The notes beneath the pieces are model-generated. The model did not search any database, was not told where the DNA came from, and saw only the letters and a list, made by a program, of their open reading frames with translations. Of a stretch of DNA of 64,000 bases, positions 921-48,837 are shown in pieces (within the stretch, counting starts at the first letter, position 1; each line of letters starts with the position of its first letter). This stretch comes from Thermoplasmata archaeon (GTDB lineage: Archaea > Thermoplasmatota > Thermoplasmata > Lutacidiplasmatales > UBA184). The position numbers and the translations under genes were made by a program. The stretch spans positions 240,459 to 304,458 of the forward strand of contig JBKQUP010000037.1 of the NCBI GenBank assembly GCA_052325545.1. Reading direction: 5' to 3'.

Positions 921-1727
921 TCAGTACTCGGACAGGTTCCCCTCCTCGAGGACATGCCGCTCGACACGGTGGAAGACGAGGCCCGCCACGGAAAGGTAGA
1001 CGAGCGTGGTGATGACGGCCCCCGCGAGGTCTCCCCAGAACCCCCACCCGAACCCTTGGTAGCCGGGGATCGACAGGTACCGGAGCGCGTCCAACCCCCA
1101 CGTCGGTGGGAAGGCGAGGGAGATCGGGTTCGTGACGAACGGGAGGAGGATGACCGGGAACATGCAGCCGGTCCCGATGTAGAAGGCGAACTCGCCGATG
1201 TTCTGGATGAACCCCGCGTAGCGGGTGTACACGTAGAAAGCGGCGAAGATCACCCCGACGCTCGCGAGCGTGATCATCACGAAGACGAACAGGAGCGCGA
1301 ATCCGACCGGGTTGGGCACGGTCGGTGGCCCTCCCGCGACAATCACGATCACCACGTAGACGATCGCCCCGCCGAACAGACCGGAGATCACGTTCCAAAG
1401 CACGCGGCCTACCACGACGTACAGGTACGGGGTCGGCGCCTGGATCGTCGGCTCGAGAGTACCGTACTCCCGGTCCATGCCGGTCGCCCACCCGCTCCCG
1501 TAGAGGGTCTGGCCCCACATGCTCATCATGCCGGCCCCGAGGATCGCGTACGTGAGGAAGTACGGCCCGGCGCCCCGGAACAGCTCGAAGGAAACGAGCG
1601 CGAAGACCACCGGGGCGATCATCGACGGGACGAGCCACTGGGGGTCGGCCAGGAACTGGAGGACGCTCAGCCGGAGCGAGGCATAGGTGGAGCGGGCCCG
1701 GGAGTATTGGGCTATGACCTCGGCCAT
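921..1727 (-). CDS. ABC-2 type transporter permease
   Basis: 268-aa multi-pass membrane ORF. Its start codon (1725-1727) directly abuts the stop of the upstream ABC ATPase gene (1728). Confidence 0.7.
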   Translation of the reverse strand: MAEVIAQYSRARSTYASLRLSVLQFLADPQWLVPSMIAPVVFALVSFELFRGAGPYFLTYAILGAGMMSMWGQTLYGSGWATGMDREYGTLEPTIQAPTPYLYVVVGRVLWNVISGLFGGAIVYVVIVIVAGGPPTVPNPVGFALLFVFVMITLASVGVIFAAFYVYTRYAGFIQNIGEFAFYIGTGCMFPVILLPFVTNPISLAFPPTWGLDALRYLSIPGYQGFGWGFWGDLAGAVITTLVYLSVAGLVFHRVERHVLEEGNLSEY

Positions 1728-2714
1728 CTATCGGGGCTCCTCCTCAACGAGGTCGAGGTAAACGTCCTCCATCGACGTGCGACGTTCGCGGACTGTCAGC
1801 TCCGGGTGGTTGGGCAGCGCCGCCCGGACCTGGTCGAGGCTGAGCTCGTTCGTCCTCATCCGCAACGTAATCCGGGAAACCGGTCCGAACTCCTCGGTGA
1901 GGAATCTCGAAACCCCCGGAAGATGGCGGAGTGACTCGAGCTCCCGGTCGTCGAACCCGTACGCTTCGACATCGACGGTCCGGTCGCCGCCGACCAGGTG
2001 ACGCAGGTTCGCTACCGTGTCCTGGGCCACGATGCGCCCTCTGGAGAGGACGGCGAGCTTGGGGCACAGCTCTTCGGCCTCGAACATGTAGTGGGTCGTG
2101 AGGAAGATCGTCACCCCGTCCGCGACGAGGGACCGGATCAACTTGCGGGTCTCGCGAGCGCTCTTTGGGTCGAGCCCGATCGTCGGCTCGTCGAGGAAGA
2201 GGATCTGGGGCCGATGGAGGATGCCCCGCGCGAGGTGGAGCTTCTGCTTCATGCCGCGCGAGTATTCTTCGACCCGACGGTCGGCCGCTTCCTGGAGGTC
2301 GACCCGGGAGAGTACCTCCTCGATCCTCCGCTCTCTGTCCGAATGAGGGATGCCGTAGAGGTCGGCAAAGTACCGCAGGTTCTCCCGGGCGCTGATCCGG
2401 GTGTACAGCCCCCGCTCTCCGCCGAGGACCAACCCCATGCGTGGACGAAGCCACTCCGCCTCGTGGACGACGTCGTGCCCGAGGACAAACGCCCGGCCCT
2501 GAGTGGGAAGGAGGAGCGTCGAGAGGATCTTCGTGAGGGTGGTCTTACCGGCGCCGTTCGGGCCTAGCAGGCCGAAGATGGCTCCCCGCTCGACGTTCAG
2601 GTCGATCCCCTTGAGGGCCTCGGTGTGCGTGACCTCCCGGAACAGGAAGCCCTTACGGGTGTCGAAGACCCGGGTGATCCCGTGGGTTTCGATGGCGAAC
2701 GAGTCGTTCGGCAT
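1728..2714 (-). CDS. ABC transporter ATP-binding protein (DrrA/CcmA-like)
   Basis: Walker A GPNGAGKTT, signature-like SRGMKQKL and Walker B ILFLDEPTIGLD. Confidence 0.9.
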   Translation of the reverse strand: MPNDSFAIETHGITRVFDTRKGFLFREVTHTEALKGIDLNVERGAIFGLLGPNGAGKTTLTKILSTLLLPTQGRAFVLGHDVVHEAEWLRPRMGLVLGGERGLYTRISARENLRYFADLYGIPHSDRERRIEEVLSRVDLQEAADRRVEEYSRGMKQKLHLARGILHRPQILFLDEPTIGLDPKSARETRKLIRSLVADGVTIFLTTHYMFEAEELCPKLAVLSRGRIVAQDTVANLRHLVGGDRTVDVEAYGFDDRELESLRHLPGVSRFLTEEFGPVSRITLRMRTNELSLDQVRAALPNHPELTVRERRTSMEDVYLDLVEEEPR

Positions 2715-2882
2715 GGTGTTGTGGAGGGGTCCCGCGCACGGCGGCGCCCATACTAATACTCAGCCGTTCGGGGCAACGGGTGCGGATCGGCCGGCAAGGG
2801 GGTTCTTCACATTCCGGTCGGCAGGACGAGCCGAGACCGCGGCCGCCGAAATTCGCTGTCGGGGCCGAACCCTCCCGGTACT

Positions 2883-3899
2883 CTACTCCAGCTCCCGGCC
2901 GGCTCTCTGTTGCTCCTCGGCCCTCTTGTCGTAGGGGTAGGTGACCTCCAGCTCGCTCGCCGCGCTCAGCGCCGCGACCTGGTCCGGGGTGAGCGACCAG
3001 CCGGTCGACCCCAGATTCTCCGAGAGTTGTTCGATGTTCCGGGCCCCGATGATCGGAGCGGTGACCGACGGACGGCTTAGGAGCCAGTTCAGGGCTACCT
3101 GGGACATGGTCTTGCCGGTTCCCTGGGCGACCGCCTCGACGGCCCGGACGATGCGGGTGGTCCGGTCGTTGTCGAATCGGCTGGTATAGAACTCGGGATC
3201 CTTGGAGTCAGCGATCCGGGTGCCGCTCGGGGCGTTCCGGATCCCGTTCTTGTACTTTCCGGAGAGGACGCCGCTCGCCAGCGGGCTCCAGGGAAGGACC
3301 GCGATGCTCTCCGCGAGGCACATCGGGATGAGCTCGAACTCGGTGGCCCGGGCGTACAGGCTGTACTGGGGCTGTAGGCTCACGGGCTCATGCCACCCCC
3401 GCGACCGGCACAGCTGCAAGGCCTTCTCGAACTGCCAGCCTCGGTAGTTGCTCACGCCCACGTACCGTACGGGTCCGTCCTCGACCAGAGTGTTCAGGGT
3501 ACCGAAGGTCTCCTCGAGAGGCGTCAACGGGTCCCAGGCGTGGACCTGCAGGAGGTCGACGTAATCGGTCTGCAGACGGCGAAGGCTCTCGTGGACCGCG
3601 TGGAGGAGATGTTTTCGGGATAGCCCTACGCTGTTCGCGCCATCGGCGGTTCGGAAGCGCGCCTTGGTCGCGACGACCACGTTTTGCCGGTCGTGATGGG
3701 AAAGCCACGTGCCGATGATCTCCTCGGACTTCCCCGACGAGTACACGTTCGAGGTGTCGAGGAAGTTGCCTCCCGCCTCGACATACCGGTCGAGCATGCG
3801 GTGACTGTTCTCCTCATCGACCTGCCAACCAAAGGTCATGGTGCCGAGGCAGAGCTCGCTCACCAGAGTACCGGTCCGTCCCAGCTTCTTGAGTTTCAT
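2883..3899 (-). CDS. aldo/keto reductase
   Basis: The N-terminal LGRTGTLVSELCLGTMTFG and GGNFLDTSNVYSSGKSEEIIG stretches are typical of the AKR family. Full length is 338 aa. Confidence 0.85.
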   Translation of the reverse strand: MKLKKLGRTGTLVSELCLGTMTFGWQVDEENSHRMLDRYVEAGGNFLDTSNVYSSGKSEEIIGTWLSHHDRQNVVVATKARFRTADGANSVGLSRKHLLHAVHESLRRLQTDYVDLLQVHAWDPLTPLEETFGTLNTLVEDGPVRYVGVSNYRGWQFEKALQLCRSRGWHEPVSLQPQYSLYARATEFELIPMCLAESIAVLPWSPLASGVLSGKYKNGIRNAPSGTRIADSKDPEFYTSRFDNDRTTRIVRAVEAVAQGTGKTMSQVALNWLLSRPSVTAPIIGARNIEQLSENLGSTGWSLTPDQVAALSAASELEVTYPYDKRAEEQQRAGRELE

Positions 3900-4109
3900 G
3901 AATCCCCGAACGTTCCTCGAATAATGACCCTTCCGACGCTCGTAACGACGTCGTCTCCCTCGACCGGCCGACGCCTTCGGAGGGGTCCCCGAAGTTCTCG
4001 AGGAGGGTCGGGGCCCGCCCTCCCTGACCGGTGGGGCCGGTTCGGTGGTCCCTCGGGGTGGACGGACTTATTCGGTGACCGATGCATACCGCTTCAGCGA
4101 CCCAGGGAT

Positions 4110-5069
4110 ATGGACAGCGTACACCAAGCCGCCGCGCAGAGCCATCCCAGCCTGCCCGCCCCGCGGACCCCGGTCGGTCTAGTGTTGAACATCATGCACT
4201 TCGCGCTCCACGACGGACCGGGCATTCGAACGACGGTGTTTCTCAAGGGCTGTCCCCTGCACTGCTGGTGGTGCCACAACCCCGAGAGCCAACGGCACGA
4301 GGCCGAAGTGATCTACTTTGAAGAGCGGTGTGTTCGCTCCGGCGACTGTGTACGCGCGTGTCCCCACGGCGCGCTTCATCTCGAGCAAGGGCAGCTTATC
4401 CATGACCCCCTTCGGTGCCAGCATTGCGCCGAATGTGTGAGCGCCTGCTCGACCTCGGCACGCGAGCTTGCCGGACGCTGGATGACGGTGCCGGACGTCA
4501 TGGCCGAGGTCTCGAAGGACCAGGTCTTCTTCGATGAGTCTGGTGGCGGCATCACCGTCTCGGGCGGAGAACCTCTGATGCAGGCCGGCTTCGTGGAATC
4601 CCTGCTCGCCGCCTGTCGGGCCCGGCGAATCCCCACCGTCCTTGACACCTGCGGCTGGGTGGACCCGAGCGTGCTGCTCCGGGTCCGCGAGAACGTCGAT
4701 CTGTTCTTCTATGACCTTAAGGTGATGGACCGCGAAAAGCACCACCACTTCACCGGCGTGCCGAACGATGTGATCCTGGAGAACCTGAGGATGCTGGCCG
4801 AACTCGGAAGCGCCGTGGTCGTCCGCGTCCCCGTTATCCCGGGAGTCAACGACGATACGGACAACATGGACGCGCTCTCCGGATTCCTGGCGCCCCTCGG
4901 CCTTCGACAGATCGACCTTCTCCCTTATCACCGGCTTGGAAGCGACAAATACCGCCGACTCCACTTGCCGTACGAAATGGAAGGAGTGGTCCCCCCGTCG
5001 GACGAGCAGATGGAAACCCTGGCGGCGCGCCTGCGACGGGACGGGTTCACCGTGCGGGTCGGGGGATGA
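4110..5069 (+). CDS. glycyl-radical enzyme activating enzyme (radical SAM)
   Basis: HDGPGIRTTVFLKGCPLHCWWCHNPE carries the CxxxCxxC radical-SAM motif. Auxiliary Cys clusters (CVRSGDCVRACP, CQHCAECVSAC) are typical of GRE activases. The start is set at in-frame ATG 4110 inside the 3684 ORF; 4182 and 4194 are alternatives. Confidence 0.85.
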   Translation: MDSVHQAAAQSHPSLPAPRTPVGLVLNIMHFALHDGPGIRTTVFLKGCPLHCWWCHNPESQRHEAEVIYFEERCVRSGDCVRACPHGALHLEQGQLIHDPLRCQHCAECVSACSTSARELAGRWMTVPDVMAEVSKDQVFFDESGGGITVSGGEPLMQAGFVESLLAACRARRIPTVLDTCGWVDPSVLLRVRENVDLFFYDLKVMDREKHHHFTGVPNDVILENLRMLAELGSAVVVRVPVIPGVNDDTDNMDALSGFLAPLGLRQIDLLPYHRLGSDKYRRLHLPYEMEGVVPPSDEQMETLAARLRRDGFTVRVGG

Positions 5070-5070
5070 C

Positions 5071-7458
5071 GTGAACGAACGCGTGACCCGACTGAGGCAG
5101 GCGACCCTCGAGGCGAGACCGCGACTCTCCATCGACCGTGCGGCGCTCATCACTGAGTTCTACCGTCAGGACAAGACCGCCTCCGTTCCCATCCGCCGGG
5201 CCCTCGCCCTCCAGTACCTGTTGGAGAACGAGAAGATCCACATCGGTCGGGTCGAACTGATCGTGGGCGAGCGTGGTCCCGAGCCCAAGGCGGCCCCCAC
5301 GTTCCCGGAGCTGTGCTGCCATAGCCTCAACGACTTCGAGGTCCTGAATTCGCGGGAGAAGATCCCCTACCTCGTGGATGACCGCGCCCGGCAGGTCCAG
5401 AATGAGGAGGTCATCCCCTACTGGCAGGGGCGCTCGATGCGCGACCTGATCTTCGCGGAGATGACCCCGGAATGGAAGGACGCGTACGAGGCAGGAATCT
5501 TCACCGAGTTCATGGAACAACGCGCCCCCGGGCACACGGTCCTGGGGGACGTCATCTACCGCAAGGGGCTTTTGGACCTGAAGACCGACGTGGCCAGCGC
5601 CTTGTCCCACTTGGACTGTTTCAACGACCCCGGGGCGTCCGCGAAACGGGATGAACTGCGGGCCATGGCGATCGCCGCCGACGCGGTGATCCGGTTCGCC
5701 GAACGCCACGCCGAGAAGGCGGAGGAACTCGCCCGGACGGAAACCGACCCCGGCCGTCGGGCGGAACTACACAAGATCGCCGAGGTGTGCCGCCACGTCC
5801 CGGCCCACGCTCCGAGGGATTTCTGGGAAGCGGTACAGGCCTACTGGTTCGTTCACCTCGGGGTGGTGACGGAGCTGAACACCTGGGATTCGTTCTGCCC
5901 GGGGCGCTTCGACCAGCATCTCGACCCCTTCTACCGGAAGGGCGTGCAAGAAGGCACGTTGACCCGGGACCAGGCCAAGGAGCTTCTCGAATGCTTGTGG
6001 GTCAAGTTCAACAACCAGCCGGCTCCCCCGAAGGTCGGCGTGACCAACGCGGAGAGCGGCACGTACACCGATTTCGCCAACATCAACAGCGGCGGGCTGA
6101 AGCGGGACGGGTCGGACGCCGTGAACGACGTCACCTACCTGGTCCTGGACGTGATCGACGAGATGCACCTGCTGCAGCCTTCCTCGAATCTCCAACTGAG
6201 CAAGAAGAACCCGGACGCGTTCCTGAAGCGCGGCCTGGAGATCGTGCGCCAAGGCTGGGGGCAGCCGTCGGTCTTCAACGCCGACATGGTCGTCGAGGAG
6301 ATGCTGCGCCAGGGAAAGGCCGTGGAGGACGCGCGGTGCGGCGGCACTTCCGGATGCGTCGAGACCGGCGCGTTCGGGAAGGAGGCCTACATCCTGACGG
6401 GTTACTTCAACCTCCCCAAGGTGCTGGAGGTCACCCTCAATAACGGCGTGGACCCGCGCACCGGTAAGAAGGTCGGTATCGAGACTGGGGACCCGCGTGC
6501 GTTCTCGTCCTACGACGAGCTGTTCGCGGCGTTCCGTCGGCAGCTCCACTACCTCATCGACGTCAAGGTGCGGGGCAACCAGGCCATCGAACGGTTGTAC
6601 GCGATGTACATGCCGGCCCCGTTCCTCTCCCTCCTCGTCGACGACTGCATCGCCCAGGGAAAGGACTACAACGACGGTGGCCCGCGCTACAACACCACCT
6701 ACATCATGGGAGTGGCGCCGGCGACCTGCACCGACAGCCTCTCCGCGATCAAATACCACGTCTTCGACCGCAAGACCGTGACGGTCGAGGAGCTGCTCGC
6801 TGCGTTGGCCAGCAACTTCGAGGGTCACGAGAAGCTGCGCTTGCGGTTGTGGAACAAGACGCCGAAGTTCGGCAATGACGATGACTACGCGGATGCCCTC
6901 CTCGTGGAAGTGTTCAACGCCTTCTTCGATGAGGTCGACGGGCGGAAGAACACGAAAGGGGGACAGTACCGAGTGAACTATCTCTCGACGACCTGCCATG
7001 TCTACTTCGGCTCGGTGACCGGCGCCACCGCGGACGGGCGCCGCGCCGGGGAGCCTCTGTCGGACGGCATCTCACCTGTTCAGGGCGCGGACCGCAACGG
7101 ACCCACCGCCGTCGTCAAGTCCGCGGCCAAGATGGACCACGCCCGTACCGGCGGAACCTTGCTCAACCAGAAGTTCACGCCCCAGTTGCTGAAAGGGGAG
7201 GAGGGACTCGGCAAAGTGGCGGGACTGGTCCGCTCCTACTTCCGTCTCGGGGGACATCACATCCAGTTCAACGTCGTCACTGCGGCCACCCTGCGGGCCG
7301 CGCAGGCCGAACCCGAGAAGTACCGCGACCTGATCGTACGGGTCGCCGGGTACAGCGATTACTTCTGTGACCTGACCCGCGCCCTGCAGGACGACATCAT
7401 CGCGCGGACCGAGCACGGAGCCTTCGAGCTCGCCCCGACGGAGACGACCGCGGTTTGA
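5071..7458 (+). CDS. glycyl radical enzyme, PFL2/glycerol-dehydratase-like family (substrate unknown)
   Basis: C-terminal glycyl-radical fingerprint IVRVAGYSDYF, thiyl loop GGTSGCVETG and ATADGRRAGEPLSDGISP. The GTG start at 5071 lies 1 nt after the activase stop, giving about 796 aa. Confidence 0.9.
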   Translation: MNERVTRLRQATLEARPRLSIDRAALITEFYRQDKTASVPIRRALALQYLLENEKIHIGRVELIVGERGPEPKAAPTFPELCCHSLNDFEVLNSREKIPYLVDDRARQVQNEEVIPYWQGRSMRDLIFAEMTPEWKDAYEAGIFTEFMEQRAPGHTVLGDVIYRKGLLDLKTDVASALSHLDCFNDPGASAKRDELRAMAIAADAVIRFAERHAEKAEELARTETDPGRRAELHKIAEVCRHVPAHAPRDFWEAVQAYWFVHLGVVTELNTWDSFCPGRFDQHLDPFYRKGVQEGTLTRDQAKELLECLWVKFNNQPAPPKVGVTNAESGTYTDFANINSGGLKRDGSDAVNDVTYLVLDVIDEMHLLQPSSNLQLSKKNPDAFLKRGLEIVRQGWGQPSVFNADMVVEEMLRQGKAVEDARCGGTSGCVETGAFGKEAYILTGYFNLPKVLEVTLNNGVDPRTGKKVGIETGDPRAFSSYDELFAAFRRQLHYLIDVKVRGNQAIERLYAMYMPAPFLSLLVDDCIAQGKDYNDGGPRYNTTYIMGVAPATCTDSLSAIKYHVFDRKTVTVEELLAALASNFEGHEKLRLRLWNKTPKFGNDDDYADALLVEVFNAFFDEVDGRKNTKGGQYRVNYLSTTCHVYFGSVTGATADGRRAGEPLSDGISPVQGADRNGPTAVVKSAAKMDHARTGGTLLNQKFTPQLLKGEEGLGKVAGLVRSYFRLGGHHIQFNVVTAATLRAAQAEPEKYRDLIVRVAGYSDYFCDLTRALQDDIIARTEHGAFELAPTETTAV

Positions 7459-7495
7459 AAGGACTCGCGTCCGCAGCATTCGAGACCAGGGGGAG

Positions 7496-8935
7496 TTGAT
7501 GCCGGACCGTCCCCCCGGGCCCCCACCCGCCGCGTCCGCGCCACGGACGCGGCCCTCACTCTCGGATGCGCCCCTCCGTCGCCTTGGGAAGGTCGAGCTG
7601 CTGGGGGCGGGAGCGGCGTTTGTCGCTCCGGCGTTCAGCCTCGCGGCGATCTTTACGCTCCTGGCCCTGAAGGGAGGGCGCTACGCCTGGGTCGGCGTCG
7701 TGCTCGGCTTGCTCGCGGTCCTTCTGACCGGGGTGTGCTTCGCCCGAATGACCGCTCGCCATCCGAAAGCGGGGGGCGCGTACGCGCTGGTCGGCGCCGA
7801 GCTCTCCCTCCCCGTGGGGTTCATCGCCGGGTGGGCACTCTGCCTCCTGTACCTGCTCGGACCCGCGATCCCACTGCTTCTCTTCGTCACGCTCCTCGAG
7901 GTGTTCCTGCCTCAGACCGCCGGGGCCCTGATCCCCATCGCCGCAGTGGTGGCGGTCGGGGTGTTCGGGCTGAACGCGCTGGGACTGCGTCCCTCGAGCC
8001 GGGTCGCCCTCGCCGTCTTCGTGGCCGAAGCAGCGATCCTTCTCGGAGTGGCCGCCGCACTGTTCCTGCAGCCCGCCGCCGCGCTTCCCGCGCCGCCGGC
8101 GACCCCTCTCGATACGTTGATCGCCCTCGGCGGGAGCGGCGGGGCGGCCGTGTTTCTGTTCCTAGGGTTCGAGTCGGTCTCCGCCTACGCGGAGGAGGCT
8201 CGGCTCCCGGCTCGGGATATCGCATGGGGGACCGGGGCGACGATCCTCGCCACGGGCGTTGTCTACGTCGTCTCCGCGCTCGCCTACCTGCATGCGATCC
8301 CGGCCTCTCAGTGGGGGTCGACGGGCGCATCGCTCCCCACGGCCGTGGGGAGCGTGCTGGGCACCAATGGCGGGAGACTCGTCACGGCGGTGATCATCGT
8401 CAGCTCCCTCGGCGCCATGATCTGCGTGGAGAACGCGTGCGCCCGGGTGCTGTTCGCCATGGGCCGAGACCGCGTTCTCCCCTACCCCTTGGCCCGTCTG
8501 TTCGGCCGTGAGAAGGCACCGTGGCCCGCGCTCGCCGTATCCGCGGTGGCGGCCTTCGGCCTCGTCTGGTGGTCCACCGTGTCCATGGGGGTCCTGTCTG
8601 CCCCGCCCGCGTTCCTGCTGGTCCTGCTCCCGGAACTGCTGGTATTCGGGGCCCTCGTGGCGTACGCGCTCCTGAGCCTCGCCTACCTCGTGGCTCTCGT
8701 GCGGGAGGGGGTCGCGCGGTCCGCCCCATGGCGTCTCGCGGTCCCATTGGCCTCGCTCGGCGTTACCGGCACCCTCCTCGTGCTGCAGGTCCTCCCGGGC
8801 ACGCCGGGGTGGAACGACGTACTCGTCTGGGGAACCGCGTGGCTTCTGGTGGGATTCGGAGTCTGGGGAGCGACCTGGTTCTCCTCACGAACGAACCCGA
8901 CGCGGTCCGCGGGCGAGCCGAGCGGCGAAAGTTAG
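7496..8935 (+). CDS. APC-family amino acid/polyamine/organocation permease
   Basis: About 12 hydrophobic segments and a GGAYALVGAELSLPVGFIAGW N-terminal signature. Same strand, 38 nt after the GRE. Start is TTG 7496 or ATG 7499. Confidence 0.75.
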   Translation: MMPDRPPGPPPAASAPRTRPSLSDAPLRRLGKVELLGAGAAFVAPAFSLAAIFTLLALKGGRYAWVGVVLGLLAVLLTGVCFARMTARHPKAGGAYALVGAELSLPVGFIAGWALCLLYLLGPAIPLLLFVTLLEVFLPQTAGALIPIAAVVAVGVFGLNALGLRPSSRVALAVFVAEAAILLGVAAALFLQPAAALPAPPATPLDTLIALGGSGGAAVFLFLGFESVSAYAEEARLPARDIAWGTGATILATGVVYVVSALAYLHAIPASQWGSTGASLPTAVGSVLGTNGGRLVTAVIIVSSLGAMICVENACARVLFAMGRDRVLPYPLARLFGREKAPWPALAVSAVAAFGLVWWSTVSMGVLSAPPAFLLVLLPELLVFGALVAYALLSLAYLVALVREGVARSAPWRLAVPLASLGVTGTLLVLQVLPGTPGWNDVLVWGTAWLLVGFGVWGATWFSSRTNPTRSAGEPSGES

Positions 8936-9056
8936 CGCGGCGTCGCAGGCCACGTCGCCAAGCGCCTTCGTCGCACCGGGTCCGGAACGCCCCGACGAAT
9001 GGGACGTTCGGCCGTGGTTGATTTATTCGGGAGGGCAGTGCCCCGCCGATTCTGGA

Positions 9057-10547
9057 ATGGCCGAAACGCGCTCCTCACCGCGCTGGATCCTGTTCGTCGT
9101 CATTCTCGGAACCCTGATGGCATCGGTCGACACCACGATCGTGCTCCTGGCGTTTCCGACGATCGCCGGGAACCTGCACGCGAGTCTGTCGACGGTCCTC
9201 TGGACGATCCTGATCTACCTGCTCCTCGTGTCGGTTCTGACCACCCAGGCCGGCCGCATCAGCGACCTGTTCGGGCACGGCCGCCTTTACAACGTGGGGT
9301 TCGTGGTCTTCACCGTCGGCTCGGCGCTCTGTGGCTTCGCACCGACGGCGGAAAGCCTCGTCGCGTTCCGTGGGGTCCAGGCGGTCGGTGGGGCCTTCAT
9401 GGTCGCGACCGGGACGGCCATCCTCGCCGACACCTTTCCCCCGGCGGTCCGGGGCCGGGTCTTTGGCTTCACCGCCATGGGCTGGAACGTCGGGGCCACG
9501 CTCGGCATCGTCCTCGGGGGTGTGCTGACGACCTTCGTCGGCTGGCGCTACATCTTCTTCATCAACGTCCCCATCGGGATCGTCGCGGTGGTCCTTGGCT
9601 ACCGGGTCCTCGGGGTGGGGAACCGCACGAAGGCGCGGCTGGACCTCATCGGGATGCTCCTGCTCGCGGCCGTCCTCGGGCTCATCGTCTACGGGGCGAC
9701 CGACTTCGCCTCCTACGGCGCCTCGACGTGGAACATGAGCCTCATCGCGCTCGGCGCGGTGATGGCCGTGCCGTTCCTCTGGTGGGAACGACGCGCGGTC
9801 AGCCCGACCATCAACCTCCTGCTGTTCCGCTCTCGGCTGCTCTCGCGGTCCCTCGCCGCGTCGTTCCTCCAAAGCCTCGGGTACCTCGCCACCGTCTTCC
9901 TGCTGATCATGTACCTTCAGGGGATCCGGGCGCTCACTCCGCTCGACGCGTCGTTGCTTCTCGTCCCGGGGTACGTTCTCTCCTCAGGGCTCGCGCCAGT
10001 GGCGGGCCGATGGGCCGACCGCTGGGGACCCGCGCGCCTCGCGACGCTCGGGATCGCGTTCATGCTCGTGGGCGTGCTTCTTTACGCCCAGATCGGACTG
10101 ACGACCCCGATCCTGGAAGTGGCGCTCATCTCCCTGGTCACGGGGATCGGCGGCGCGCTGTTCTGGCCCTCGAACAACAAGGCGGTGATGCACGACGTTC
10201 CGCCGGGATACTACGGGTCGGTGTCGGGGCTTCTTCGAACCCTGTCCAACCTGGGGACCATCGGGAGCTACACCCTCGTGATCACCGTTGCCTCGTTGGC
10301 GATCCCCCGAGCCCTGGCGTTCGAGGTGTTCGTGGGTGGCCGAGGCGTGATCGGCTCGGTATCGACCGAGTTCCTCACGGCGATCCACGCGGCGTTCTAT
10401 GTCATGGCCGCGATCCTGGTGGTGGCGGCCGTGCTCTCGGCGACCCGCTTGGGACATGACGGCGCCTCCGGGATGGACGGCCCGTCGCCCGTGGTCTCGG
10501 ACGGCCGACCCGCGACCGACGGGTCGAAGAACCCGAAGCTCCCGTGA
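9057..10547 (+). CDS. MFS transporter, DHA2 (EmrB/QacA-like) drug:H+ antiporter family
   Basis: 14-TM-like profile with FVVILGTLMASVDTTIVLLAFPTI and SDLFGHGRLY motifs. ATG 9057 was chosen inside the 9018 ORF. Confidence 0.8.
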   Translation: MAETRSSPRWILFVVILGTLMASVDTTIVLLAFPTIAGNLHASLSTVLWTILIYLLLVSVLTTQAGRISDLFGHGRLYNVGFVVFTVGSALCGFAPTAESLVAFRGVQAVGGAFMVATGTAILADTFPPAVRGRVFGFTAMGWNVGATLGIVLGGVLTTFVGWRYIFFINVPIGIVAVVLGYRVLGVGNRTKARLDLIGMLLLAAVLGLIVYGATDFASYGASTWNMSLIALGAVMAVPFLWWERRAVSPTINLLLFRSRLLSRSLAASFLQSLGYLATVFLLIMYLQGIRALTPLDASLLLVPGYVLSSGLAPVAGRWADRWGPARLATLGIAFMLVGVLLYAQIGLTTPILEVALISLVTGIGGALFWPSNNKAVMHDVPPGYYGSVSGLLRTLSNLGTIGSYTLVITVASLAIPRALAFEVFVGGRGVIGSVSTEFLTAIHAAFYVMAAILVVAAVLSATRLGHDGASGMDGPSPVVSDGRPATDGSKNPKLP

Positions 10548-10613
10548 ACCTCCGCACGGACGGGGCCCCGGGTTGAGTTGGGCGGGCTCGGGGCGATCCT
10601 TCCCGCCCGACCC

Positions 10614-11348
10614 TTATCGGCGCTTGGTTCCGATGAGCAGCCCGCGATCGGCCATCAGCCCGTCGGACACGAACCGGGACCGGAACCCTGCCGCATCCAT
10701 GAGCTCCAAGAGGCGCGCACGGGAGACCAACAAACCGACGTCGGTGACCTCGGCGTGACGGATGCCTCGGCCCGGTTCCGCGATGAGGTAGTGGTACCGG
10801 ATGACCGAGTGGTTCCCGCGGCGCGAGGAGAAGGCAACGCGGGCCACCTGGACGGTGGGATCGTCGGACGTGCGGACGTGGACCATGGACGACCGGAACT
10901 TCGAAGGGTCGATCCAGGGCTCCACGATTGCGACGCCGCCCGGGTTCAGGTGGCGGGAGAGGTTGACGAACGTGGTCTGAAGGTCGCGCTCCGTCCCCAA
11001 GTGGCCGATAGCGCTGAAGAGACAGCTCACGACGTCGAACCGCTCGTCCAACCGGAACGTGCGCATGTCCGCGAGCACGAGGCGGACCCGGGGCAGGCGA
11101 CGGCGGGCAATTCGAAGCATCTCGCGGCTCGCGTCGACGCCGACGACCGGGTGCTTTTGCCGCAGGAACTCGAGGTGCCGGCCGGTCCCGCACGCCACGT
11201 CCAGCCAGGTCGTCCTCCCCGGTCGGCCGTAACGCCGGGCGATCGCTTCGAGGCGCCGGGCCTCGGCGCGGTAGTCCTTCCACGCGTTCAGGCCGTCGTA
11301 GTACCGGGCGAGGTCCCCGTAGAACTGGGAGGGTTTCGGACCGGTCAT
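10614..11348 (-). CDS. class I SAM-dependent methyltransferase
   Basis: Motif I WLDVACGTGRHLEFL. Start set at ATG 11348 (MTGPKPSQFYGDLARYYD) within the longer 11444 ORF. Confidence 0.8.
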   Translation of the reverse strand: MTGPKPSQFYGDLARYYDGLNAWKDYRAEARRLEAIARRYGRPGRTTWLDVACGTGRHLEFLRQKHPVVGVDASREMLRIARRRLPRVRLVLADMRTFRLDERFDVVSCLFSAIGHLGTERDLQTTFVNLSRHLNPGGVAIVEPWIDPSKFRSSMVHVRTSDDPTVQVARVAFSSRRGNHSVIRYHYLIAEPGRGIRHAEVTDVGLLVSRARLLELMDAAGFRSRFVSDGLMADRGLLIGTKRR

Positions 11349-11376
11349 GGCGACACATCGCTCCGGTCGGGCGCCT

Positions 11377-11796
11377 CTAGGAGAGCTCGCTTCGCTTCGG
11401 GCGCCGGCCGAGGGTGATCCAGATCCCATCCGGGTCGGTGACACTCGCCATCCAGCCCCCGGTCGTGGAGGGGCCGTAGCCGGTAGGCTTGGCCCCGTGC
11501 TTCAGAAGGCGGCGATAGACGCGTTCGAGTTCCTTTCGGGGCACTACCCCGAGCGTGAAGTCGAGATGGTCCACAGCGTCGCCGGTGCGATACGGACCCG
11601 AGAATAGCGACCCCTTGGGGTACCAGTTCAGCTCGACCTTCCGGCGCGAGCGGGGGTCCTCGAGGAGGACCCAGATGCCCCCGCCCCATCTACGGGTGTC
11701 CCCCCGGCGGACCTCCCGGAAACCGAGCGCCTTGGTGTAGAAGCGGAGCGACCGCGGAAGCTGGGTCACTCGCAGCCCGACGTTCTCGAATCGCAT
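11377..11796 (-). CDS. VOC family protein (glyoxalase/bleomycin-resistance fold)
   Basis: 139 aa. The pattern MRFENVGLRVTQLPRSLRFYTKALGF...DHLDF...DPDGIWITL is typical of glyoxalase-I-like proteins. Confidence 0.75.
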   Translation of the reverse strand: MRFENVGLRVTQLPRSLRFYTKALGFREVRRGDTRRWGGGIWVLLEDPRSRRKVELNWYPKGSLFSGPYRTGDAVDHLDFTLGVVPRKELERVYRRLLKHGAKPTGYGPSTTGGWMASVTDPDGIWITLGRRPKRSELS

Positions 11797-11921
11797 GCCG
11801 AAGGGAGGCGAAGGGGAGTCTATACCCCTGACGCCACGGCGTCGGAGCGAAAGGAGCCGCGAAGGAATCGACCGGGCGTCCTCCCCATATACGGACTCCT
11901 AGTGGCCCGCCCCGGACCCGA

Positions 11922-12710
11922 ATGGCGACCGAGGACGTGATCCGGGATTTCGACACGCTCTCGGCGGTCTACGACGAGACGCGCCAGCCGCTCGACCCGG
12001 TCACGGTCCAAAACCTCGAAGAGTACCTCCACGAACACGGTTGGAGCGAGGTCCTCGAGGTCGGTGTCGGAACCGGACGGATCGCGCGGCCGCTCGTCGA
12101 CCGGGGCGTCCGGGTCGTGGGGGTGGACGCCTCCCGGGGGATGCTCGGGCGCGCCGCGGCCAAGGGTCTCCCGTACCTGGTGCGGGGAAACGCCTACCAC
12201 CTCCCGTTCTCGGACGGCTCGTTCGACGTCGCCCTCTTCGTCCATGTCCTGCACATACTGGACCGGCCCGAGCTCGGCCTTCGCGAGGCCGCCCGTGTGG
12301 GCCGGCACGGGGCTCTTGCAATCCTGGACCTGCCCCCCCAGGGGGAACGCCCCGACCGGCCCCTGGAAGAGGAACCGCGGCGGATCGTCCGGGAGATCCT
12401 GGCGGAGGCCGGCTACCCCAACCTCCTTCGCGCGGGTCCCCGCGCGAAAGAACAGGAGCTCCTGCGTACGTACCCGCCGACGGAGCTCCGAGTGCTGAGC
12501 GACCGGGAGGTCTCCGAGCCGCTCGCACGGCGGCTCGACGCGCTCGAGAAGCGAGCGTACCGCCACGTCCTGCGGGTCCCCCCCGACATTCTCGCGCGGG
12601 CCGTCGCTACGGCGCGCGCGCAGGTCGGGACCCGAACCGTCACCTACCGACGAACCGAAGCGGTCGCGTGGTGGACGAGCGTGGCAGGGACCCCGGTCCC
12701 GTCACGGTAA
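11922..12710 (+). CDS. class I SAM-dependent methyltransferase
   Basis: Motif I VLEVGVGTGRIARPL, followed by VVGVDASRGML and FDVALFVHVLH. Confidence 0.8.
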   Translation: MATEDVIRDFDTLSAVYDETRQPLDPVTVQNLEEYLHEHGWSEVLEVGVGTGRIARPLVDRGVRVVGVDASRGMLGRAAAKGLPYLVRGNAYHLPFSDGSFDVALFVHVLHILDRPELGLREAARVGRHGALAILDLPPQGERPDRPLEEEPRRIVREILAEAGYPNLLRAGPRAKEQELLRTYPPTELRVLSDREVSEPLARRLDALEKRAYRHVLRVPPDILARAVATARAQVGTRTVTYRRTEAVAWWTSVAGTPVPSR

Positions 12711-12731
12711 CGCGGCCCGTGCGGCCACGAC

Positions 12732-15416
12732 CTACTTCGTGAACCGGTGGTCCATGACGTACGGAAGGACGCCGCCGGCCCGGTAGTACTCGAGCTCGGT
12801 GGTCGAGTTCAATCGACACGAGACGGTGAACGAACGAACCGTGCCATCGTCCGCCCGGGCGAGGACCTCGACGGGGCTCCCCGGACCGAAGGACGTCCCG
12901 GCAGGAAGACGCAGGGTGAACGATTCCCGACCCGTGAGGCCGAGCTGTTTCCAGCCTTCGCCCGGCCGGAACGCGAGGGGGAGGACCCCCATCTCGATCA
13001 GGTTCGTCCGGTGGATCCGCTCGTAGCTCTCGGCGATGATGGCACCGACCCCGAGCAACCGCGGTCCCTTGGCCGCCCAGTCGCGCGAGCTTCCCTGACC
13101 GTAGCTCTTTCCGGCCAGGACGATCAACGGGGTCTTCTCGGCGCGGTACCGCTCGGACGTCTCGAAAATGGTCGACTCCGCGCCCGACGGGACATGGACC
13201 GTGTACCCCCCTTCCTTTCCGCCGGCGAGCTGGTTCTTCAGCCGCACGTTCGCGAACGTGCCTCGCACCATGACCTCGTGATGCCCTCGTCGGGCGCCGT
13301 ACGTGTTGAACTCTCGTACCGGGACCCCGTGGGCGAGGAGGTACCTCCCCGCGGCGGAATCCTCGGGGATCTCCCCCGCGGGGGAGATGTGGTCGGTCGA
13401 GACCCGGTCGCCCAGGAGGACGAGCGCTCGCGCTCCCTCGGCGAGGACCCCGTCCTTCGGAAGCCACGGCGCGGTAAGGTCGAGATACGGAGCCACCGCA
13501 AGGTAGGTGGAGCCGGGGGACCAGCCGTACTGGGCACCCGTGGGCGGGTCGAGGGATTCCCAGTGGTGGTCTCCCACCTCGATCTGGCGGTACTTCTCCG
13601 CGAACAGGGACGGGTCGAGGCTCGCGTCGACGATCCTCCGCACCTCCTCCGCCGACGGCCACAGGTCGCGCAAGTAGACCGGCGAGCCGTCCGGCCCCCG
13701 TCCGAGAGGGTCGCGGGTGAGGTCGAGGTCGACCCTTCCGGCGAGGGCGTAGGCGACCACGAGCATCGGCGAGGCGAGGTAGTTCGCGCGGACCTCGTTG
13801 TGGACCCGCGCCTCGAAGTTGCGGTTGCCGCTCAGGACGGCCGCGACGAAGAGGTCCTGGTCGCGGACCTGCTGGCTTACGGGCGGGGGGAGCGGACCCG
13901 AGTTGCCGATGCACGTGGTGCAGCCGTACCCCACGACGTCGAAGCCCAGCCGGTTGAGGTACGGGAGGAGACCCGAACGCTCGAGATAGGCCGTCACGAC
14001 CTTCGAGCCGGGCGCGAGGGACGTCTTGACGTGCGGCGGGACCTTGAGGCCGAGCTCGGAGGCTCGCTTCGCGATCAGCCCGGCCCCCACCATCACGCTC
14101 GGGTTCGAGGTGTTCGTGCAGCTCGTGATGGCCGCGATGACCACCGAGCCGTCCTCCACCGGCGGAGCGAGGGAGCCCGACGCGGAGGCCCCGGGTCGGG
14201 GACGGGTCTTCCGGTAGGATTCGAGCGCGGTGCGGAAGGAAGCCGGTGCGTCGCCGAGCGGGACGGCCTCCTCCGGGTTCCTCGGTCCCGAGACCATCGG
14301 GACGATCGACCCGAGGTCGACCGCGAGGAGGTCGTCATAGTCGACCGACCCTGGGGCCGGCGAGCCCCAGAGCCCCTGGGCCCGGGCGTACGCCTCGACC
14401 CGGGCGACGACCTCGGGGCTTCGGCCCGTGCCGCGAAGGTACGCGACGGTGGCTTCGTCGATCGGGAAGAGCGCGGCGGTCGCGCCGTACTCCGGGCACA
14501 TGTTCGAGACGGTCGCACGGTCGGGCACGGAGAGATGGCCGACGCCCGGCCCGAAGAACTCCACGAACTTGTCGACGACCCCCTTCTCTCGGAGACGGCG
14601 GGTGACGGTCAGGACGAGGTCGGTCGCGGTCGCGCCCTCGGGAAGCGACCCCGTGAGCTCCACGCCCACGACCACCGGCGGGGCGAGGAAGTACGGTTCA
14701 CCGAGCATGACGGCCTCGGCCTCGATCCCGCCGACCCCCCAGCTGAGGACCGAGAGCCCGTTCACCATGGTCGTGTGGGAATCGGTCCCGATGACGGTGT
14801 CCGGGAACCCGACCCGGCTCCCGTCCGGCCCGCGGGCGTCGACCACCGTGGAGAGGTGCTCGAGGTTGACCTGGTGGCAGATCCCGTTCCCCGGAGGGAC
14901 GATGCGCACGTTCGTGAACGCGCCCTTGGCCCAGCGGAGGAAGCGGTAGCGCTCTGCGTTGCGTTCGTACTCCCGGTCGAGGTTGATCCCGAGCGAGCGG
15001 GGGGAGCCGAAGCTGTCGACCTGGACCGAGTGGTCGATGACGAGGTCGACCGGGACGACCGGGTTCACGCGGGTCGGGTCGACCCCGCGGCGCACGGCCG
15101 CGCTGCGGAGCGTGGAAAGGTCGACGATCACCGGCACTCCGGTGAAGTCCTGGAGGAGGACACGTTCCGGGAAGTAGGCGAACTCGGTCCCCTCGGCGAC
15201 GGCGTCCCCGTTCGCGAGGGCCACGAGGGCCTTCAGGTCCGTTACGCGGGCGTCAAAGTGACGCAGGACGTTCTCGAGGAGGATCCGGGTCGTTCTCGGG
15301 CGGCGGGCGAACCGGTTCGGGTCGACCCCGGCGAGGCGTTCCGGACGGTAGATCGTAGCGCGCTCGGAGCCCCAGGTCAGCGAGTCGGTCACGCGAAGCG
15401 GGTCGGACGAGCCCAT
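12732..15416 (-). CDS. acnA: aconitate hydratase (AcnA type)
   Basis: 894 aa from ATG 15416 (MGSSDPLRV...). Contains IGTDSHTTMVNGL, the Fe-S ligand region SCTNTSNP and GCTTCIGNSG, and a swivel domain with GKSYGQGSSRDWAAKG. The upstream part of the 1063-aa ORF is an artefact. Confidence 0.92.
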   Translation of the reverse strand: MGSSDPLRVTDSLTWGSERATIYRPERLAGVDPNRFARRPRTTRILLENVLRHFDARVTDLKALVALANGDAVAEGTEFAYFPERVLLQDFTGVPVIVDLSTLRSAAVRRGVDPTRVNPVVPVDLVIDHSVQVDSFGSPRSLGINLDREYERNAERYRFLRWAKGAFTNVRIVPPGNGICHQVNLEHLSTVVDARGPDGSRVGFPDTVIGTDSHTTMVNGLSVLSWGVGGIEAEAVMLGEPYFLAPPVVVGVELTGSLPEGATATDLVLTVTRRLREKGVVDKFVEFFGPGVGHLSVPDRATVSNMCPEYGATAALFPIDEATVAYLRGTGRSPEVVARVEAYARAQGLWGSPAPGSVDYDDLLAVDLGSIVPMVSGPRNPEEAVPLGDAPASFRTALESYRKTRPRPGASASGSLAPPVEDGSVVIAAITSCTNTSNPSVMVGAGLIAKRASELGLKVPPHVKTSLAPGSKVVTAYLERSGLLPYLNRLGFDVVGYGCTTCIGNSGPLPPPVSQQVRDQDLFVAAVLSGNRNFEARVHNEVRANYLASPMLVVAYALAGRVDLDLTRDPLGRGPDGSPVYLRDLWPSAEEVRRIVDASLDPSLFAEKYRQIEVGDHHWESLDPPTGAQYGWSPGSTYLAVAPYLDLTAPWLPKDGVLAEGARALVLLGDRVSTDHISPAGEIPEDSAAGRYLLAHGVPVREFNTYGARRGHHEVMVRGTFANVRLKNQLAGGKEGGYTVHVPSGAESTIFETSERYRAEKTPLIVLAGKSYGQGSSRDWAAKGPRLLGVGAIIAESYERIHRTNLIEMGVLPLAFRPGEGWKQLGLTGRESFTLRLPAGTSFGPGSPVEVLARADDGTVRSFTVSCRLNSTTELEYYRAGGVLPYVMDHRFTK

Positions 15417-15462
15417 GACGGGACAGGCGGCGGGTGCTTTTGGGCTCTTTGGCCGCGTCGGG

Positions 15463-16428
15463 CTAGTCCGGAGCCAGCGCGACCGACCGTTCCCACCCGA
15501 GGCGAAGGTGGGTTCCCGGTGGGGGGACGGCGACGGTCGTCCGGAGCTCGAGCCGTTGCCCGTCGTCGGTACGCAGGACCACCTGGTTCTCCCGACCGAC
15601 GGGGCCTGCGACAAGGACGGTAGCTCCCAGACCGTCGGCGCCGGCCGAAAGGAGTTGCAGGTCGGTCGGCAGGACCCCAACGAGCCCCGCCGGGCCGGTG
15701 AGGACGTTGTACCCCAGGAACCGGGCCGCCCGGACCGTTCCGGGATTGCCGAAGACGTCGGACGGCCGACCGAGGGCGTGAAGCCCTCCATCGAAGAGGA
15801 GGCCGACCCGGTCCCCGAGGAAGAGTCCCTCCTCCCGGTCGTGGGTGACGTGGATCGCGGAGGTGCCGGACGCGCGGAGGACCTGCCGGAACTCCGAGCG
15901 GAGCTCGGCCTTGAGCTCGACATCGATCGAGGCGAACGGTTCGTCCAGGAGGACGAGGCGGGGACGGGCGGCGAGCGTGCGCGCGAGGGCGACGCGCTGG
16001 AGCTCCCCGCCCGAGAGCTGGTCCGGCCGCCGGTCCTCGAACCCGGAGAGGTGGAGGAGGTCGATGAGCCGCGCGACCTCCTCTTTCACCTCGGCGGCCG
16101 GGCGGTGCTTCAGGAACGGGGCGTAGGCGATGTTCTCGTAGACCGACCGGTGGGGGAAGAGTGCCGGGTCCTGGAACATTAGGACGATCCCCCGCTCGTG
16201 GGGGGGACGGCGCGTGACGTCCACGCCGTCCAGGAGGACCGTCCCGCCGGTGGGGCGCTCGAGGCCGGCGAGGCAGCGGAGGAGCGTCGTCTTGCCGCAG
16301 CCGTTCGGTCCGAGGAGGACGAGGAACTCGCCCTCGGGGAGGCCGAACGAGACGTCCCGGAAGACCGGTACGCCGTCCCACGCGGCGGAGAGGTTCCGGA
16401 CCTCGAGGAGCGACCTAGAGCTCGACAC
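15463..16428 (-). CDS. ABC importer ATP-binding protein (FbpC/PotA-like, with C-terminal TOBE-like tail)
   Basis: Walker A GPNGCGKTT, signature LSGGELQRV and Walker B LVLLDEPFASID. Overlaps the permease stop by 14 nt. Confidence 0.88.
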   Translation of the reverse strand: MSSSRSLLEVRNLSAAWDGVPVFRDVSFGLPEGEFLVLLGPNGCGKTTLLRCLAGLERPTGGTVLLDGVDVTRRPPHERGIVLMFQDPALFPHRSVYENIAYAPFLKHRPAAEVKEEVARLIDLLHLSGFEDRRPDQLSGGELQRVALARTLAARPRLVLLDEPFASIDVELKAELRSEFRQVLRASGTSAIHVTHDREEGLFLGDRVGLLFDGGLHALGRPSDVFGNPGTVRAARFLGYNVLTGPAGLVGVLPTDLQLLSAGADGLGATVLVAGPVGRENQVVLRTDDGQRLELRTTVAVPPPGTHLRLGWERSVALAPD

Positions 16429-44820: not shown

Positions 44821-44851
44821 TAAGCCCGACCCGGGTCCCCTCGCTCCAGCG

Positions 44852-48734: not shown

Positions 48735-48837
48735 CGACGGTCCGGGGACGTTCCGGCACAGATGAACCTTCGGCTCGAGGCGCCGGCACGGGACGACGCT
48801 TATCGGTCGGCGGCGCCTCTTACCGGAGAGAGAGCTC

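Follow-up and report, generated by a model that had tools for sequence, protein, structure and literature searches.

A predicted trans-4-hydroxy-L-proline dehydratase and its activase in a soil Thermoplasmata archaeon, most likely acquired from bacteria

Introduction

What does a glycyl-radical enzyme (GRE) do in a soil archaeon, how did it get there, and where does its product go? These questions are raised by the stretch of archaeal DNA analyzed here (64,000 nucleotides, hereafter the window), which carries a GRE gene between genes for a radical-SAM activase and an APC permease. The source genome is a metagenome bin estimated to be 89% complete. The original prediction placed the three genes in one operon around an archaeal PFL2-type enzyme with no assigned substrate, and sought clues to that substrate in the neighboring genes. 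We compared the enzymes with family models and solved structures, placed the GRE in a phylogeny, and surveyed gene neighborhoods in related loci and genomes. We find that the GRE belongs to a characterized family, that it most likely came from bacteria together with its activase, and that the permease is a local neighbor.

Results

The locus lies on an archaeal contig

The host of this locus is an archaeon, a soil Thermoplasmata. An Orc1/Cdc6 gene (44759-46009) and a gene for an archaeal class-I CCA-adding enzyme (47322-48965) lie within the window, the 16S rRNA of the assembly scores 1481 bits against the archaeal model vs 1067 bits against the bacterial model, and G+C content is 68% both on the 306-kb contig and elsewhere in the bin. 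These markers agree with the original description of an archaeal GRE locus. The activase and GRE genes have a G+C content of 64%, slightly below the contig mean.

The activase gene (4110-5069, + strand) runs from an ATG at 4110 to a TGA at 5067-5069 and encodes 319 aa. Its stop is followed after one base by the GTG start of the GRE gene (5071-7458, + strand), which encodes 795 aa with Pfam PFL-like and Gly_radical domains. The permease gene (7499-8935, + strand) encodes 478 aa and matches Pfam AA_permease_2 and AA_permease (E 1e-19). The three same-strand genes are packed as first described, and the coordinates and motifs given for the GRE and the activase all check out. For the permease, the reading frame stands but the start moves: an identical 478-aa database protein fixes it at the ATG at 7499, not the TTG at 7496, which leaves a gap of 40 nt after the GRE stop instead of 38 nt and puts the motif GGGGGAG just upstream. 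Divergent from the activase is an aldo/keto reductase gene (2883-3899, - strand), as originally reported and as Pfam agrees, and downstream of the permease is a DHA2/EmrB-type MFS efflux gene (9018-10547). The 210 bp between the reductase and the activase (3900-4109) are the presumed promoter region of the cassette. The sole A+T-rich patch in this region, ACTTATTC, lies at about 4066-4073, some 37 nt 5' of the activase ATG; we infer that it could be a putative TATA box.

The GRE is predicted to be a hydroxyproline dehydratase

Against the NCBIfam equivalog model for HypD (NF043068), the GRE scored 1305.8 bits, above the cut-off of 1100, with residues 2-782 covering profile positions 1-782 of 784; a genome-level search with the same model gave 1305.5 bits for HypD. 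Among solved structures, the best match was the crystal structure of C. difficile HypD (PDB 6VXC), to which 780 residues align at 58% identity for a score of 1099 bits. The second-best was glycerol dehydratase at 552 bits, and no other solved GRE exceeded that score, including the other GREs that act on hydroxyprolines (HpyG 8ID1, 474 bits; HpzG 8IOF, 477 bits; HplG 7VUA, 414 bits) and A. fulgidus PFL2 (2F3O, 454 bits). With glycerol dehydratase as the root of a tree, the ingroup contained the window protein as well as the C. difficile enzyme. The idea of an unassigned archaeal PFL2-type enzyme does not survive these comparisons: the protein passes the HypD model and sits within HypD, inside a Terriglobales clade, and is not an orphan.

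The residues that matter for catalysis are also in place. The Gly loop RVAGYSDYF holds G760, and the Cys loop GCVETG holds C429 and E431; these align with G765, C434, and E436 of the C. difficile enzyme. The earlier assignment to the Cys-x-Glu eliminase branch is supported. Roles for HypD residues come from mutagenesis and structure (PMC7077986), which define a HypD-specific set of H160, D278, D339, S334, F340, Y450, and T645, plus F152, W277, R156, and K326 (C. difficile numbering). Together with C434, E436, and G765, these make 14 catalytic or Hyp-binding positions, where Hyp is trans-4-hydroxy-L-proline. All 14 are identical in the window protein, and they are invariant across 80 orthologues bar two positions, R156 among them, in one sequence. 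Glycerol dehydratase has a different residue at 10 of the 14.

We predict with high confidence, on the strength of these family matches and pocket residues, that the GRE is a trans-4-hydroxy-L-proline dehydratase (HypD). The original prediction had guessed that the substrate might be an amino acid and had listed hydroxyproline among its candidates, and in this it was right. It had also held that a pocket conserved with a characterized family would make the enzyme ordinary, and by that measure it is ordinary: the enzyme was already known and the host is what is new, with the interest, which is moderate, lying there.

By analogy with the C. difficile enzyme, the activase would, under anoxia, put a radical on the Gly of the RVAGY motif (Gly760 here, Gly765 in C. 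difficile), from which the radical would move to Cys429 of the GCVE loop. Cys429 would then take the C5 hydrogen from free Hyp, and the 4-OH would leave as water, aided by Asp273, His155, and Glu431, yielding delta-1-pyrroline-5-carboxylate (P5C). This dehydration of Hyp to P5C is the predicted activity of the window enzyme.

A predicted HypD activase precedes HypD

In the activase, the radical-SAM cysteines are spaced as C48-x3-C52-x2-C55, and a ferredoxin-like insert contributes two auxiliary-cluster motifs, C74/C80/C84 and C103-x2-C106-x2-C109-x3-C113. The protein matches Pfam Radical_SAM, Fer4_12, and several Fer4 families, in line with the auxiliary Cys clusters reported earlier. Its top NCBIfam match is the trans-4-hydroxy-L-proline dehydratase activase model, NF043069, but its score of 378.5 bits does not reach the equivalog cut-off of 425 bits; it is well above the cut-off of the GRE activating protein model TIGR02494 (352.4 bits vs 174). 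Because the NF043069 cut-off is missed, its assignment as the HypD activase rests on conserved adjacency, the activase adjoining HypD in 70 of 80 loci. It lies directly 5' of HypD in the two closest syntenic HypD loci (L004 and L095, with activase identities of 83% and 80%) and in the Acidobacteriota locus L005 (71%). We conclude that 4110-5069 and 5071-7458 form a two-gene cassette, predicted to encode HypD and its dedicated radical-SAM activase.

The cassette most likely came from Acidobacteriota

The nearest non-archaeal relatives of the cassette are in Acidobacteriota, where HypD identities are 76-86% and activase identities reach 71%, and these bacteria have the same bare activase-HypD pair. 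In the tree, four archaeal copies, that of the window and three from the same archaeal group, form one clade (support 100/98), which is nested among five Terriglobales sequences (support 100/100). The enclosing clade has 23 rows, mostly Acidobacteriota, and quick trees gave the same Terriglobales placement. An AU test rejected an Acidobacteriota-only clade with p = 5e-5, for a group that was defined post hoc from the tree and includes a row sister to a Bathyarchaeia sequence. Within the host genus, HypD is present in 2 of 37 species genomes, and one of the two copies (in G012) is frameshifted. Given the nesting in the Terriglobales clade and this sparse distribution, on which the proposed direction of transfer rests, the activase-HypD pair was most likely acquired from bacteria. 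To look for an empty site, we also traced the downstream MFS gene to its orthologues in two HypD-less congeners (G004 and G007); synteny was not kept there, and no clean site was found.

Two other archaeal HypD orthologues group elsewhere. One from Bathyarchaeia (L024), 70% identical to the window HypD, pairs with an Acidiferrales bacterium, and one from the same class as the host (G054), which passes the NF043068 cut-off, pairs with Aminicenantes. Since both group apart from the window HypD, the tree calls for three or more independent origins in archaea, and HypD appears to have been gained by archaea no fewer than three times.

Among the archaeal copies, HypD has a dN/dS of about 0.10 and the activase one of 0.13, which shows that purifying selection has maintained the cassette. 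Its GC3 is 0.88, which is host-like, and that of the closest Acidobacteriota is 0.64-0.69. The cassette would have entered an ancestor within the Thermoplasmata genus from a Terriglobales-type donor sharing its soil or peat habitat, and would then have adjusted to host codon G+C while being held by purifying selection.

P5C is likely to be converted to glutamate

We found no match to P5CR_dimer, the domain of P5C reductase (proC), in this roughly 89% complete bin, and matches occurred in only 2 of 28 genus genomes, a count that includes the window genome, itself without a match. The gene thus appears to be missing from almost the whole genus, although the incompleteness of bins limits what absence from a single genome can say. 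With no proC adjacent to HypD and none found in the genome, a Stickland-type conversion of Hyp to proline is unlikely.

The gene for a P5C dehydrogenase (C13:237833-239485; TIGR01236, 751 bits, cut-off 614) and that for HypD lie on different contigs. The dehydrogenase gene adjoins SoxA/SoxB-like genes that probably encode a proline dehydrogenase of archaeal type, their best solved relative being chain B of 1Y56, the P. horikoshii L-proline dehydrogenase complex. The genome also has a glutamate dehydrogenase; no haem-copper oxidase was found in the bin, again at about 89% completeness. Most likely, the P5C formed from Hyp would be oxidized to glutamate by the host's own L-glutamate gamma-semialdehyde (P5C) dehydrogenase, and glutamate dehydrogenase would yield 2-oxoglutarate and ammonium. 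Hyp from sources such as plant hydroxyproline-rich glycoproteins would in this way feed an existing archaeal proline catabolism.

Discussion

Alternative readings of the locus

Taken together, our main reading is that the locus is a HypD-activase cassette acquired from Terriglobales-type Acidobacteriota, whose product P5C would, in a last and inferred step, go to glutamate; we give it a probability of roughly 85%. The original prediction, in contrast, saw in the activase, GRE, and permease a dedicated uptake and catabolism operon in which the permease is the specific importer, its co-transcription a clue to the substrate, and the aldo/keto reductase the only candidate for processing the product. 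The shared strand, the 40-nt gap with no obvious T-run, and the GGGGGAG before the permease ATG all fit a three-gene operon, as does an amino-acid permease next to an enzyme for an amino acid, and the HypD-permease adjacency recurs in one other metagenomic strain, which is diverged (L095/L096; permease identity 89-91%). That strain, however, is the only other place where the permease adjoins HypD: it was not found next to HypD in L004, in G012, or in the other 79 HypD loci. No permease homologue flanked HypD in 80 related loci, and none was found in 60 related archaeal genomes. Among six close metagenomic homologues examined, one is next to HypD and five are in unrelated contexts (other contexts include L092-094, L097, L106, L107, and L108). 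No NCBIfam model reaches its cut-off for the permease, so its family does not give its specificity. The reductase, for its part, is missing from both of the closest syntenic loci and is not known to act on P5C, for which the P5C dehydrogenase on another contig is the likelier consumer. What is conserved in the neighborhood is the activase-HypD pair, and not the permease or the reductase, and we consider a dedicated three-gene operon possible but unlikely. The MFS gene, which lies 3' of HypD in L004 and L095, was tried as a conserved transporter partner and set aside, as it belongs to the DHA2/EmrB efflux family and neither the bacterial loci nor G012 have it. We regard both this efflux gene and the aldo/keto reductase as unrelated neighbors. 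The permease, possibly co-transcribed with HypD, looks like a lineage-specific neighbor outside the conserved unit, and may be a candidate Hyp importer added locally.

The remaining alternatives concern the substrate, the purpose, and the reality of the cassette. A reductase divergent from the activase and 210 bp away, NAD(P)H-dependent, could in principle turn P5C into proline without ProC, and in a genus that almost entirely lacks ProC another source of proline would be useful. Yet the two closest HypD-bearing relatives do without this reductase, the proline dehydrogenase-like pair beside the P5C dehydrogenase points to proline breakdown, and aldo/keto reductases are not known to reduce P5C; a cassette for proline supply strikes us as improbable. 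GREs do exist for N-methyl-cis-4-hydroxyproline isomers and for trans-4-hydroxy-D-proline, which might suggest that this HypD-family enzyme acts on 3-hydroxyproline, an N-methylated Hyp, or a different isomer of Hyp. The window protein, though, matches 6VXE at each of the 14 positions that touch trans-4-hydroxy-L-proline or act on it, its HypD score is more than twice those of HpyG, HpzG, and HplG, and it clears the equivalog cut-off by 200 bits, making a different substrate very improbable. Finally, bacterial nearest relatives outside the genus, the frameshift that splits the G012 copy, and the lower G+C of the two genes could be taken as signs of a mis-assembled or mis-binned bacterial fragment or of a decaying, non-functional relic. 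Against this, the cassette is found at 4-7 kb in a window with archaeal marker genes on a 306-kb contig, it recurs with archaeal flanks (TBP, ABC transporter, MFS, aconitase) on independent assemblies, and it has host-like GC3, two intact full-length frames, and dN/dS of about 0.1. The contig G+C, the marker genes, and the recurring flanks led us to reject a mis-binned bacterial contig, and we give an artefact or relic of any kind almost no credence.

Significance

Our preferred reading, a transferred HypD-activase cassette, gives a predicted substrate to an archaeal GRE that had looked like an orphan, and so shortens the list of unknowns. It also describes a well-supported transfer of an oxygen-sensitive radical enzyme from bacteria to archaea, between partners that share acidic soil and peat. 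The result suggests that soil Thermoplasmata use Hyp, probably derived from plant cell-wall glycoproteins, as an anoxic source of carbon and nitrogen, and the likely route would be the one to glutamate and not the clostridial one to proline. A bolder version, in which the cassette is wired into a new anaerobic route from Hyp via P5C to glutamate, using the native proline-dehydrogenase/P5C-dehydrogenase module of a host without proC, and an APC permease that is not otherwise linked to HypD has been recruited as a new type of Hyp importer, seems doubtful to us. If true, it would be the first case of a PFL-like GRE in archaea for which substrate, transporter, and downstream pathway are all defined.

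Comparison with known systems

The nearest characterized system is HypD of C. difficile with its activase, HypD-AE (6VXC/6VXE; NF043068/NF043069; PMC7077986, PMC6219649). The window HypD shares its length, its domain order, its Gly and Cys-Val-Glu loops, and all its Hyp-binding and acid/base residues, and both have an activase with a ferredoxin-like insert immediately 5'. The window system differs in its archaeal host, in having no adjacent proC, with P5C probably going to glutamate, and in an activase below the NF043069 cut-off. Only a subset of HypD genomes has a neighboring proC (PMC6219649).

Closer in sequence are the HypD loci of Terriglobales from soil and peat (L005-L009), with HypD 80-86% and activase 59-71% identical, and with the same bare two-gene cassette of overlapping or abutting genes. 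They belong to the other domain, their GC3 tracks each host, and their flanking genes are different. Archaeal HypD has been reported as a clade near thermophilic bacteria (PMC6219649); the window HypD stands apart from the Bathyarchaeia and same-class orthologues described above.

HpyG, HpzG, HplG, and the B12-independent glycerol dehydratase (1R8W) share the Cys-x-Glu branch, the fold, and the mode of radical installation with the window enzyme, but their scores to it, 414-552 bits, are far below the 1099 bits of HypD. Glycerol dehydratase moreover differs at HypD-specific residues (D278H, S334F, D339M, F340Y, and Y450F). A. fulgidus PFL2 shares with the window enzyme an archaeal host and a place in the eliminase-like group of PFL-like GREs, but at less than half the HypD score it is not the nearest family, and its function is still debated (PMC13450708). 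According to a 2026 review, all PFL-like GREs of known function are bacterial (PMC13450708), so an archaeal HypD, with a substrate that can be predicted confidently, offers a convenient starting point for biochemical work on such enzymes in an archaeal host.

A predicted hydroxyproline dehydratase in an archaeal genome

The glycyl radical enzyme (GRE) gene (GTG 5071 to 7458; 795 aa; Pfam PFL-like and Gly_radical) is preceded by an activase gene (ATG 4110 to TGA 5067-5069; 319 aa; Radical_SAM and Fer4) and followed by an APC-type permease gene (7499-8935; 478 aa; AA_permease), all on the forward strand. As the original prediction stated, the three genes are co-directional and one base separates the activase stop from the GRE GTG. 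Translation and Pfam likewise bear out the GRE loops RVAGYSDYF and GCVETG and the cysteine clusters of the activase, C48-x3-C52-x2-C55 and a ferredoxin-like insert (C74/C80/C84 and C103-x2-C106-x2-C109-x3-C113). The permease does follow on the same strand, but the gap is 40 nt rather than 38, its start being ATG 7499, as taken from an identical 478-aa database protein; GGGGGAG precedes this ATG.

The locus is archaeal, as had been proposed. The 306-kb contig holding the window has the same G+C as all other contigs of the bin (1.68 Mb, estimated 89% complete), the 16S rRNA of the bin scores 1481 bits against the archaeal model versus 1067 against the bacterial one, and genes for Orc1/Cdc6 and for an archaeal CCA-adding enzyme (class I) lie in the window itself. 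Among named sequences, the locus is closest to L004, from a 'Thermoplasmata archaeon' soil MAG, whose flanking MFS, methyltransferase and aconitase genes are 85-93% identical to those of the window. For the aconitase gene (12732-15923, reverse strand), the longest ORF has 1063 aa; its first in-frame start is probably not the true one, since it resembles the L004 orthologue only from residue 47 onwards and the ORF called in L004 has 894 aa.

The original prediction treated the GRE as an archaeal enzyme with no assigned substrate. [quoted passage not shown] Among solved structures, C. difficile HypD (6VXC/6VXE) scores 1099 bits with 58% identity, against 552 bits for glycerol dehydratase, 414-477 bits for the other hydroxyproline-acting GREs HpyG (8ID1), HpzG (8IOF) and HplG (7VUA), and 454 bits for A. 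fulgidus PFL2. In C. difficile HypD, Hyp is bound through its carboxylate by Ser334, Tyr450 and Thr645, and Phe340, Phe152 and Trp277 pack against its ring; Glu436, Asp278, His160 and Asp339 provide the acid/base chemistry, and Arg156 and Lys326 balance charge (eLife structure paper, PMC7077986). Our alignment shows the window protein to be identical at all of these residues and at Cys434 and Gly765, an outcome that the original prediction had called ordinary. In 80 orthologues the same 14 positions never vary, apart from a single Ignavibacterium sequence that departs at two of them; in glycerol dehydratase, 10 are different. The GRE is thus predicted to be a known, well-characterised enzyme, HypD, in a new host lineage. 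The exceptional sequence (L039, Ignavibacterium album MAG, 1630-3984) has Asp for the radical glycine G765 and Cys for R156; either this copy is inactive or its sequence contains an error.

The best family for the activase is NF043069, the HypD activase, at 378.5 bits, under the cut-off of 425; it passes the general GRE-activase model. We assign it as the putative HypD activase because its adjacency to HypD is conserved, with an activase directly upstream in 70 of 80 related loci.

Probable transfer of the activase-HypD pair from Acidobacteriota

Among 185,579 species genomes, the closest HypD proteins after that of L004 (90% identity) belong to soil and peat Acidobacteriota (Sulfotelmatobacter, Acidobacteriaceae, Terracidiphilus and Bryobacteraceae; 76-86%), and the activase ranks its relatives in the same order (71%, 69% and 65%). 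In two HypD trees, one quick and one careful, whose results agree, the window copy forms an archaeal clade (support 100/98) with L004, the metagenome contig L095 and a frameshifted copy from G012, another species of the genus. These four nest among five Terriglobales sequences (100/100), within a mostly Acidobacteriota clade of 23 rows (96/97). Constraining Acidobacteriota to a clade of their own was 291 log-likelihood units worse (AU p = 5e-5); the group tested was defined with the tree already in view and takes in a sequence whose partner is from Bathyarchaeia. HypD occurs in just 2 of the 37 species genomes of the archaeal genus, and in Acidobacteriota the unit is likewise the bare activase-HypD pair, with otherwise unrelated genes around it. 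A single transfer, from Terriglobales to this genus of Thermoplasmata, explains these data most economically.

This exchange is not a very recent one, since GC3 has moved to host level (0.88 versus 0.64-0.69 in the closest Acidobacteriota) and dS to the closest Acidobacteriota sequences is saturated (1.5-2.2). Values of dN/dS among the archaeal copies (0.10 for HypD, 0.13 for the activase) indicate that function has been maintained. The G012 HypD (G012:C4:118601-120947; about 10566-12951 of its locus, reverse strand) is broken into two overlapping frames near residues 651-663, the two parts being 85% and 93% identical to the window protein and the activase intact (75%); it is either a decaying pseudogene or an assembly frameshift.

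HypD has previously been noted in several archaea (PMC6219649), and archaeal copies require at least three origins on our tree. A Bathyarchaeia MAG from SPRUCE peat (L024/L100, 8001-10358) encodes a HypD, with 70% identity to that of the window, that pairs with one from 'Candidatus Acidiferrales' (Acidobacteriota; 100/100), which looks like a second, separate Acidobacteriota-archaea exchange, in peat. A genome from another family of the same class encodes a full-length HypD (G054:C1:180067-182421; 1142 bits, 54% identity) whose long branch and grouping with Aminicenantes suggest a third archaeal origin.

The permease is a local neighbour

The original prediction took presumed co-transcription with the permease as a sign of a small imported substrate, an argument that conservation in related archaea does not back. 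In none of the 80 loci searched, L004 included, is HypD accompanied by a permease homologue within 8 kb, none occurs at E below 1e-20 in 60 related genomes, and the source genome has no paralogue. Close homologues (70-89% identity) exist on archaeal-looking metagenome contigs; of six examined, one adjoins HypD, in a sister strain (L095/L096) with the same order of ABC transporter, activase, HypD, permease and MFS genes. The permease is not a conserved partner of HypD, and their adjacency is therefore a local arrangement common to two strains. Co-transcription and a role in Hyp uptake are possible, but conservation does not support them. No transporter model reached its cut-off in a family scan of the permease.

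In L004 an MFS gene directly follows HypD, and the G012 context is different; the MFS gene of the window belongs to the DHA2/EmrB-type efflux family. The divergent aldo/keto reductase gene (2883-3899; Aldo_ket_red), once put forward as a downstream enzyme, lost that standing, being missing from both L095 and L004; in L095 an ABC ATPase gene abuts the activase across a 240-bp spacer. On metagenome contigs L097, L106 and L107, close permease homologues repeatedly come after genes for a giant surface protein with Flg_new_2 domains and a small glyoxalase-family protein, and before an iron-siderophore-type ABC importer (Peripla_BP_2/FecCD); the permease family may originally have had this setting.

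A likely oxidative fate for the product

HypD would convert Hyp to delta-1-pyrroline-5-carboxylate (P5C). We found no P5C reductase in the source genome or in nearly the whole genus, which makes conversion of Hyp to proline by the clostridial route unlikely. One of the five aldehyde dehydrogenases of the genome passes TIGR01236, the L-glutamate gamma-semialdehyde (P5C) dehydrogenase equivalog (751 bits, cut-off 614), and a glutamate dehydrogenase is also encoded. The native P5C dehydrogenase would therefore be the likely consumer of P5C, yielding glutamate, from which 2-oxoglutarate and ammonium would be formed. For organisms with HypD and without proC, such oxidation of P5C has been proposed earlier (PMC6219649). 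Haem-copper oxidase subunit I was searched for in the genome and not found, in keeping with a life without oxygen, as would suit a GRE. An Acidobacteriaceae MAG (L099) carries an X-Pro dipeptidyl-peptidase gene (1-1718; Peptidase_S15/PepX_C) some 6 kb upstream of its activase-HypD pair, which hints at Hyp or Pro freed from peptides.

The P5C dehydrogenase gene lies outside the window, head-to-head with genes for SoxA-like (697 aa) and SoxB-like (390 aa) proteins (source genome, G000 C13:234521-239485). The best solved relative of this pair is 1Y56 chain B (E = 4e-44); 1Y56 is the P. horikoshii L-proline dehydrogenase complex, which the pair resembles. Beyond a known enzyme, the locus adds a well-supported transfer of HypD from bacteria to archaea and, probably, a connection with proline catabolism in archaea.
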